The notes under the pieces: model-generated
What the model saw: only the letters and a program-made list of their open reading frames with translations
Database searches by the model: none
What the model was told of the DNA's origin: nothing
Made by a program: the position numbers and the translations under genes
In this document: positions 13,978 to 14,262 of the stretch, one piece after another
How positions within the stretch are numbered: the stretch's first letter is position 1
Layout: every line of letters starts with the position of its first letter
Assembly: GCA_902627055.1 (NCBI GenBank)
Contig: CACOHS010000001.1
Span: forward strand, 67,682 to 131,681
Length of the DNA: 64,000 nucleotides
Source of the DNA: an uncultured SAR86 cluster bacterium
Lineage (GTDB): Bacteria > Pseudomonadota > Gammaproteobacteria > Magnimaribacterales > D2472
Reading direction: 5' to 3'

Positions 13978-14262
13978 TTAAATAATAATTTTTGGAGGCG
14001 CTTGAGCAGAGAAAGGTTTATTTAATTGAAGATATAAGTTTCTTGAGCTTTCTGGTGTTTTAGGTTTTGTGAAATATACTTCAGACTTAACCTCAAAAAG
14101 CTCAATATCAGGTGAAATTTCGTTTTGACAGGATTGGCATTCAAATTCTGCATGATCCTCTAGCGGACTCTCATCAATGTGTGCAAATGAATGCAGTGAT
14201 ATACTTGCAAGAAAAAATAACCCAATAAATGAGATTGATTTACTATTCCGACCAAGGTTCAT
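13978..14262 (-). CDS. DUF2946/CruR-like leader protein (signal/TM segment, His + CxxC, C-terminal QAPP); candidate arrest peptide
   Basis: MNLGRNSKSISFIGLFFLASISLHSFAHID...HAEFECQSCQ...FSAQAPPKIII; ends 43 nt upstream of the ZnuD-like gene; start probably 14262 rather than 14280. Confidence 0.75.
   Translation of the reverse strand: MNLGRNSKSISFIGLFFLASISLHSFAHIDESPLEDHAEFECQSCQNEISPDIELFEVKSEVYFTKPKTPESSRNLYLQLNKPFSAQAPPKIII

Follow-up and report, generated by a model that had tools for sequence, protein, structure and literature searches.

A 64,000-nucleotide (nt) stretch of DNA from an uncultured SAR86 cluster bacterium (CACOHS010000001.1, positions 67,682-131,681 of the forward strand), here referred to as the window and providing all coordinates given below, contains a small open reading frame (ORF) whose properties point to an arrest-type leader peptide that senses a metal. 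The gene, located at 13978..14262 of the minus strand, consists of 94 codons and a stop, with its ATG at 14262 and its TAA at 13980..13978, as judged from ORF layout and conservation. Its stop is followed, after a gap of 43 nt that is almost purely A/U and holds the sequence AGGAGG, by the ATG (13934) of a gene encoding a TonB-dependent receptor, which confirms on the minus strand the co-oriented 94-residue upstream ORF of the original prediction. We consider it fairly probable that the element as a whole acts as a metal-sensing leader of the arrest type at the head of an operon of two receptors, with a hairpin that covers the Shine-Dalgarno sequence of the first receptor gene.

The distinct features of the leader are reflected in the sequence of its product, which reads MNLGRNSK-SISFIGLFFLASISL-HSFAH-IDESPLEDHAEFE-CQSC-...-KPFSAQAPPKIII. 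Its first 28 residues (14179..14262, minus strand), delimited by AlphaFold2 and alignment, comprise a basic N-terminus and a hydrophobic stretch of 15 residues, which would form the helix of a putative signal peptide or membrane anchor, followed by H24-x3-H28. A putative set of metal ligands, C42-Q-S-C45 (14128..14139, minus strand), is located after an acidic and His-containing stretch. The putative pause or arrest motif Q87-A-P-P90 (13993..14004, minus strand), assigned on its invariance and on the presence of RAPP in sister genera, is encoded by CAA GCG CCT CCA and resides four codons ahead of the stop, within the C-terminal sequence QAPPKIII. The signal-like N-terminus, LHSFAH, H-x4-CQSC and AQAPP-KIII ascribed to the peptide at the outset are each found as described; the spacer between the CxxC and the motif, then taken as about 35 residues, has to be corrected to the 41 residues that lie between C45 and Q87. 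A model obtained by AlphaFold2 from an order-wide profile (A3) shows a helix at residues 3–26 (block pLDDT at most 90) with the remainder being disordered (mean pLDDT 61.5). An alternative in-frame ATG at 14280 would extend the peptide to 100 residues, but the shorter version is preferred since each of the 51 distinct upstream sequences retains its ATG, which is not the case for the other.

Its conservation marks the leader as a real gene under selection for its product. A word-indexed protein search identified 160 relatives at E≤0.01, with no Pfam domain on record for any of the 120 listed among them, while the family is narrow, as an exhaustive search of cluster representatives yielded only six matches. 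One representative protein, which is 30% identical to the leader, also ends in SRAPPKI. In an alignment of 30 sequences, numbered according to the 100-residue version, the hydrophobic core, H30, H34, E47, C48, C51 and Q93-A-P-P-K-I98 are invariant and the 40 residues between CxxC and QAPP are variable. Among 56 distinct DNA versions, the Gln of the motif is encoded by CAA in 51 and CAG in 5 cases, the Ala by GCA in 33, GCG in 22 and GCC in 1, and the second Pro by CCA in 41, CCC in 10 and CCT in 5, with no change of any residue in QAPP, and this constancy under synonymous substitution indicates that selection acts on the peptide. The motif is also exceptional in its own genome of 1.33 Mb, where QAPP does not occur in any of 1053 long ORFs and RAPP occurs once, and where the leader is the sole small ORF ending in [RQ][AG]PP.

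The same features extend beyond the genus. When 266 species genomes from this order were searched with a profile, the family turned up in 103, covering 15 of 22 genera, all four families and 28 of the 57 high-quality genomes of the order. Of the matching loci, 92 were fetched, leaving out 10 from the own genus along with those of G751 and G599, which belong to other genera. The motif is QAPP in 12/12 loci of the genus of the window and RAPP in 80/80 loci of other genera, and the CxxC is found in 86 of the 92 leaders, with a single Cys in the form of Cxx[NFY] in the other six. The original prediction had proposed to inspect the conservation of CxxC and [RQ]APP upstream of znuD orthologs, and both are widely kept in these loci. 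It should be emphasized that the division between QAPP and RAPP by genus rests on the search of the order genomes with a hidden Markov model (HMM) and not on loci from metagenomes, since SQAPPKI was among the two patterns with which the metagenomes were scanned and the ORFs were then picked by QAPPK, so that those loci cannot show RAPP. Across 49 order-wide sequences, only C42, A88, P89 and P90 are invariant, with F17 and H28 being nearly so and C45 present in at least 90%. The spacer between the Cys residues and the motif measures 41 residues in 35/35 sequences and 40–42 residues across the order, and the motif is located 1–4 residues from the stop, with a distance of 1–3 in all 80 RAPP relatives from other genera and of 4 in the QAPP leader of the window. 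Because QAPP is confined to the genus of the window and RAPP is found in all fetched loci of other genera, QAPP is best described as a genus-specific derivative of RAPP, and the CGA codon that encodes the Arg of RAPP in some sister genera is a single base away from CAA.

A second line of evidence concerns the genes that the putative leader would control. The first of these (11631..13934, minus strand) encodes a TonB-dependent receptor of 767 residues with plug and barrel domains and five long tracts rich in His, Asp and Glu. Its best score is on the ZnuD family NF038289 (203.6 bits, E 6.4e-60) and its best relative of known structure is ZnuD (4rdr, E 7.5e-35), but since this score is below the curated cut-off of 950 bits, the protein is ZnuD-like and not a ZnuD equivalog. 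A second co-oriented TonB-dependent receptor of 863 residues, identified by domain search (8925..11516, minus strand), follows 114 nt downstream and is probably part of the same operon. In metagenome loci, a receptor gene starts 33–46 nt after the leader in 81 of 84 sources, the other three stopping at the edge of a contig, and in the order loci a TonB-receptor-like gene starts 35–48 nt after the leader in 86/86 cases, behind AGGAG[G/T/A]. The Shine-Dalgarno sequence of the receptor gene in the window, AGGAGG at 13940..13945 (minus strand), is accordingly assigned from the sequence and from its recurrence in relatives. Of the downstream receptors that are at or near full length (n=18, 674–759 residues), 16 contain at least four His/Asp/Glu tracts. 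The length of these tracts in the first receptor differs among close relatives, whose receptors comprise 715–776 residues, which suggests that repeats have expanded and contracted in the receptor loops. The assumption of a QAPP leader for a Zn/Ni-type receptor consequently stands with respect to its invariable location in front of a TonB receptor and the ZnuD-like character of this protein; it is less secure for the metal, which we infer, and for 7 of the 81 metagenome loci, where the leader precedes another receptor type that is not rich in His. In four of the seven (L038, L063, L068, L079), BLAST comparison identified a QAPP leader directly before an orthologue of the second receptor (72-74% identical), and in L002, L066 and L083 the gene after the leader begins like this orthologue. 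As a separate observation, the N-terminus of the orthologue in L066 and L068 resembles the signal peptide of the His-rich receptor, as might be expected after a deletion of the first receptor.

The link between the motif and the receptor is illustrated by a hairpin predicted at 13939..13999 (minus strand) from folding of the window and its relatives and from covariation. In this hairpin, G13999-CCUCC, comprising the last base of the Ala codon and the two Pro codons, is predicted to pair with the GGAGGU within the ribosome-binding site of the receptor, and an A/U-rich stem would be formed between the codons of K-I-I-I and the stop on one side and the intergenic region on the other, so that GCG-CCT-CC within the codons of Q87-A-P-P90 doubles as a predicted anti-Shine-Dalgarno sequence. 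The hairpin of the window (76 nt) has a folding energy of -14.6 kcal/mol and a z-score of -3.39, with 0/200 shuffled sequences being as stable. All 40 distinct sequences from the genus share the same minimum-energy fold with a mean z of -3.85, in which the A-P-P codons are the partner of the Shine-Dalgarno sequence, and the mean z of 74 distinct order-wide sequences is -3.07, with 63 of them below -2. In 86/86 folded order loci, a set that excludes the six leaders with a single Cys, the GGAG core pairs with a probability of at least 0.5 to nucleotides that lie from the motif up to +15 nt relative to the Pro codon in the P site, a stretch inside the footprint of a ribosome stalled at this site. 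The register of the pairing follows the type of Shine-Dalgarno sequence, as AGGAGT-type sequences pair with GCUCC (Ala-Pro) in 19 of 20 cases and GGAGG with CCUCC. In a clade of six loci (L141, L143, L147, L195, L203, L206), where the Shine-Dalgarno sequence is AGGAGA or AGGAGT, the partner is provided by the last sense codons and the stop instead of A-P-P. The first Pro codon is CCT in 50 of 56 distinct sequences, compared to 36.7% of Pro codons genome-wide. For a quantification of covariation, a covariance model was built from a plain MAFFT alignment (A2) and the fold of the window, the sequences were realigned to this model (A4) and pairs were counted. In A4, 80.7% of the cells pair compared to 74.9 +/- 0.6 in shuffles, both partners vary in 14 of 20 pairs compared to 7.3 +/- 1.6 in shuffles (0/500), and the covariation score is 0.139 compared to 0.016-0.040 for slid partners. 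Covariation thus supports the prediction of a hairpin that couples the codons of the motif to the Shine-Dalgarno sequence of the receptor, a feature that did not form part of the original prediction.

Collectively, these properties suggest a mechanism in which the leader is synthesized as an exported and otherwise unstructured peptide whose ligand cluster would consist of H24, H28, the acidic/His stretch and C42-x2-C45. When a pause or arrest places the two Pro codons in the P and A sites, the ribosome would cover the 5' arm of the hairpin, thereby freeing the Shine-Dalgarno sequence and turning on translation of the receptor. With Pro89 in the P site, the CxxC would be about 45 and H28 about 61 residues away from the peptidyl-transferase centre and both would have left the exit tunnel; if the signal were engaged, they would probably be found at or beyond the Sec channel, on its translocon or periplasmic side. 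Periplasmic metal brought in by the receptor would bind to these ligands, and folding or pulling would end the pause, upon which termination would allow the hairpin to re-form and less receptor would be made. The metal is most likely zinc, because the receptor is ZnuD-like and rich in His and because the nearest cluster in a comparison of language-model features is DUF2607/ZrgD. A switch that is turned off by metal is expected because the downstream genes encode uptake receptors, as is the case for the copper-responsive leader CruR. In this scheme, stalling and export as well as the identity of the metal and the direction of the switch are all inferred.

Several observations weigh against this proposal. 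The QAPP of the window's genus lacks the Arg that could not be replaced in the RAPP peptides tested so far. The six leaders with a single Cys (L139, L193, L196, L197, L202, L207), which retain RAPP and the His/acidic stretch, imply that the CxxC is not indispensable, and the seven loci with a receptor that is not His-rich weaken the case for zinc. With respect to the hairpin, a longer piece of the window (111 nt) forms the same stem with a z-score of only -1.59 and 17/200 shuffles fold as well; RNAalifold applied to A2 gave 0 pairs, because MAFFT shifts the Shine-Dalgarno sequence by 1–3 columns between rows; and A4 leans towards the model from which it was made, whose 53 matches at E≤0.01 come from only 52 of the 92 sources and include a spurious one on the opposite strand (L120). 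A consensus promoter scan is by itself not above chance, with 2 sites compared to 3.1 +/- 1.9 in shuffles. Finally, comparisons by HMM and hhalign reveal no sequence or profile link of the leader to DUF2946 or DUF2607, and its membership in either family is not supported.

Among these points, the replacement of the Arg deserves closer consideration. In ApcA, ApdA and ApdP, arrest is abolished by each of the 19 possible exchanges of the Arg in RAPP, which the same survey states had been shown before for SecM (PMC12992588), and this residue is described to contact 23S rRNA (PMC10951233). Since these peptides tolerate no other residue in place of the Arg and since it makes contacts with the ribosomal RNA, QAPP should not arrest in the canonical manner. 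At the same time, the Gln is strictly kept across the genus and QAPP is therefore not decaying. The own genome contains EF-P, and the GPPP motif of CutF, equally devoid of an Arg, is reported to act as an EF-P-sensitive pause. By analogy, the pause at QAPP would probably be of the weaker, tunable and EF-P-relievable polyproline type found in CutF rather than an Arg-anchored arrest. It is conceivable, although we regard it as doubtful, that QAPP is a working Arg-independent pause derived from RAPP by a change of CGA to CAA and that the family at the same time constitutes the first nascent-peptide sensor of periplasmic zinc. If true, streamlined and mostly Zur-less marine bacteria would gain a protein-based feedback loop whose arrest codons double as anti-Shine-Dalgarno sequence.

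The observed properties could also reflect plain translational coupling, where any ribosome on the last codons would open the hairpin, the product would be a periplasmic or membrane-resident metal-binding helper and the QAPP genus would have lost arrest. Given the geometry, a terminating ribosome would open the hairpin as well, the irreplaceable Arg of the tested RAPP peptides (PMC12992588) would be in line with a loss of arrest and the conserved His and Cys ligands with a role as helper. However, the residues of Q-A-P-P-K-I are invariant despite synonymous change, including the Gln whose codon lies outside the stem, and the Arg-less Pro motif of CutF illustrates that such a sequence can serve as regulated pause. 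A helper protein would not need a fixed spacing of 41 residues, and the central part of the peptide shows little conservation and is predicted to be disordered. We thus consider this explanation to be rather unlikely.

We find it improbable that export or the oxidation of periplasmic thiols, by Sec or Dsb, is what the leader responds to instead of a metal, similar to SecM and VemP in case of secretion. Such a role would be compatible with the putative N-terminal export signal and the Cys pair, with the reported location of RAPP upstream ORFs in front of DsbA and thioredoxin genes (PMC12992588) and with the CutF model, where disulfide formation is part of the release. Yet in both metagenome and order loci the downstream genes always encode TonB receptors and never components of Sec or Dsb, the His/Asp/Glu-rich stretch of the leader mirrors the loops of the receptor and 6/92 leaders contain a single Cys.

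Even less credence is given to a control of transcription, in which stalling would keep Rho from acting, similar to CruR (PMC9426467), or prevent the formation of a terminator hairpin. The stem in the window is followed by UUUUU, but this U-run is not kept across the order, as illustrated by GGAGGUAGUAUG and GGAGGAAACAUG, the gap of 33–48 nt is short and almost purely A/U with no C-rich stretch, and it is the pairing of the Shine-Dalgarno sequence that is conserved. An intrinsic terminator was considered as a separate candidate and rejected since the U-run is not conserved and a scan of the minus strand yielded no terminator-like site. That the leader is a chance ORF or an annotation artefact devoid of function, as its absence from the families of Pfam and NCBIfam might suggest, is refuted by order-wide conservation, fixed motifs and fixed synteny and has a negligible probability.

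Upstream of the leader, a consensus scan located a promoter-like pair (14269..14296, minus strand), with a -35 hexamer TTGTAA at 14296..14291 and a -10 hexamer TATTAT at 14274..14269, which ends 6 nt ahead of the ATG of the leader. When read by eye, the 51 distinct upstream sequences show both hexamers again at the same distance from the ATG. The short distance to the -10 box and the fact that no GGAG is found upstream of the ATG suggest that the mRNA of the leader is leaderless or nearly so. The -10 box is overlapped by a near-palindrome of 14 bp, GATGATATATTATC (14268..14281), identified by a genome scan and by comparison of relatives. This sequence occurs once in the genome and GATGNTATANNATC-like forms recur in the genus but not in genera with RAPP; in some loci it reads GATGTTATAACATC and recalls half-sites of Caulobacter Zur boxes (PMC4176598). 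It may constitute an operator or simply an extended -10 element (TGn), and in view of its restriction to the genus we do not count it as a Zur or Fur site. Zur was not found in the own genome, which is 88.65% complete and whose one gene of the FUR family scores as Fur. Among 48 genomes of the taxonomic family that are at least 85% complete, exactly one FUR-family gene is present in 37, a second weak paralogue in 8 and none in 3. It is thus plausible that the switch of the leader operates independently of a transcription factor, but the presence of a palindrome at the -10 box that is conserved in the genus speaks for caution. In 24 marine sequencing runs, 22 of them on record as RNA and all in the form of contigs, the share of matching sequence words is at most 0.17, which does not count as evidence of expression. 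In the divergent direction, an ORF with RNB and S1 domains (RNase R/II-like) of only 491 residues is found at 14315..15790 of the plus strand, with the two start codons being 53 nt apart.

Parts of the described organization have been encountered before, as upstream ORFs containing RAPP and signal peptides were reported in front of TonB receptors (PMC12992588) and as CruR and CutF provide worked examples. What is new concerns a family that spans an order outside of known Pfam families, its link to a ZnuD-like receptor, an anti-Shine-Dalgarno sequence built into the arrest codons and the natural QAPP form. Titles and abstracts of the literature that combines SAR86, TonB-dependent and zinc contain nothing on regulatory leader peptides, and the term 'arrest peptide' is absent from the best-ranked 10 of 146 papers on this term in conjunction with ZnuD or zinc. 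As was pointed out by Roy et al. (PMC9426467), riboswitches are not known for Cu or Zn and protein-based post-transcriptional sensing may fill this gap. Since the worked-out cases of metal-dependent arrest leaders so far concern only copper, the family described here would extend the principle to a ZnuD-like receptor, probably for zinc, and to a whole order of bacteria with very small marine genomes, where those of the taxonomic family mentioned above mostly contain a single FUR-family gene. It would do so in a very compact design, where the Ala-Pro-Pro codons themselves are the anti-Shine-Dalgarno sequence, and the natural exchange of Arg by Gln, which is strict across one genus, bears on the role of the Arg in RAPP.

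The relationship to known systems is one of principle rather than of detectable ancestry. The leader peptide has no match at all in Pfam or NCBIfam, including PF11162 and PF10795 at E≤1, and the HMM search against DUF2946 and DUF2607 proposed in the original prediction thus came out negative at this threshold. In the own genome, no match to PF11162 was found at E≤1 (family cut-off 23.7 bits) and none to PF10795 at E≤0.001, and PF11162 is not among the 25 families listed, out of 34, for 49 order-wide members, with the nine others comprising at most one member each. Single-protein homologue searches with DUF2946 and DUF2607 returned 1 and 2 matches, too few for profiles. The DUF2946 set was assembled from 32 fetched loci, 26 of which provided a usable ORF. 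In comparisons by hhalign against these 26 proteins, the genus profile obtained 1.4% and the order profile A3 18.5%, the latter covering only 12 columns around the CxxC; A3 obtained 4.8% against six DUF2607-like proteins and DUF2946 against DUF2607 0.5%, with none of these comparisons being significant. The spacer of 41 residues (35/35) also contrasts with 43–47 in 25 of the 26 sampled DUF2946 proteins. The original view of a DUF2946-type leader is thus retained for the architecture, consisting of a signal-like N-terminus, metal ligands, a fixed spacer and a C-terminal xAPP, and for the existence of RAPP relatives, but not for membership in the family, and the leader appears to follow the principle of CruR and CutF while not being detectably part of their Pfam family.

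The closest mechanistic match to the predicted hairpin is found in CutF of Rhodobacter capsulatus (cutFOG, DUF2946), an exported peptide that shares with the putatively exported leader a Cys motif and a C-terminal Pro motif, and where stalling at this motif was proposed to melt a stem-loop masking the next gene's ribosome-binding site. The hairpin of the leader corresponds to such a translational switch as a prediction, for which RNAalifold on the MAFFT alignment was negative. In contrast to CutF, with which it has no detectable sequence relationship, the leader contains the anti-Shine-Dalgarno sequence inside the codons of the motif themselves, and whereas CutF responds to copper and switches on a detoxifying oxidase, the uptake receptors downstream of the leader let us expect the opposite logic. 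With respect to this logic, the leader resembles CruR of Bordetella pertussis (Bp2923), where release of the arrest by copper turns the transporter off. As described (PMC9426467), CruR is the first gene in front of a TonB-dependent transporter and contains an export signal, which is putative in the leader family, and, as in this family, a CXXC, a fixed spacer and a C-terminal xAPP, located three residues from the end in CruR. The signal peptide of CruR is dispensable. Both differ in size and mode of action, since CruR comprises about 145 residues with a 45-residue spacer, RAPP and a G+C-rich gap of 162 nt and acts by Rho-dependent termination, compared to the 94 residues, a spacer of 41, QAPP, a gap of 43 nt with an A/U hairpin and no match to PF11162 in the leader of the window. 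The long gap of the DUF2946 type is thus not found in the family, where it measures 33–48 nt.

More generally, the leader shares its small size, its putative export, its C-terminal motif and its location upstream of a controlled gene with ApdA, ApdP, ApcA, SecM and the RAPP upstream ORFs surveyed by Fujiwara et al. 2025 (PMC12992588), among which those in front of TonB receptors almost all contain signal peptides. The RAPP members of the leader family fit this class, whereas the genus of the window, with Gln in place of Arg, departs from the R-A/G-P-P consensus of RAPP-type arrest. As the survey sought RAPP and RGPP, the QAPP form would have escaped it, and the word zinc is absent from its main text. 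A connection to zinc is provided by ZrgD (DUF2607), which is encoded at the head of the Zur-regulated operon for zinc import in Vibrio and whose function is given as unknown in a published account. DUF2607 is the named cluster nearest to the leader by language-model features (0.94, 178/256 shared), and ZrgD is likewise small, with a hydrophobic segment at its N-terminus, a stretch rich in His, a Cys and RAPP or RSPP at its C-terminus, and is encoded in front of a zinc-uptake gene. It differs in its single Cys and in being followed by ZrgA instead of a TonB receptor. In six loci inspected on the side (L210-L215, for example L213:1465-1773, followed by 1820-2536), the RAPP or RSPP of DUF2607 proteins is located 1–4 residues from the stop and their genes reside directly upstream of zrgA (NF047873, 280 bits). 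Papers that mention DUF2607 do not treat it as a leader by title or abstract. To us, these proteins have the appearance of arrest-type leaders in a zinc system that have gone unrecognised, and their likeness to the leader family described here suggests that zinc uptake may be controlled in this manner more commonly than recognised.

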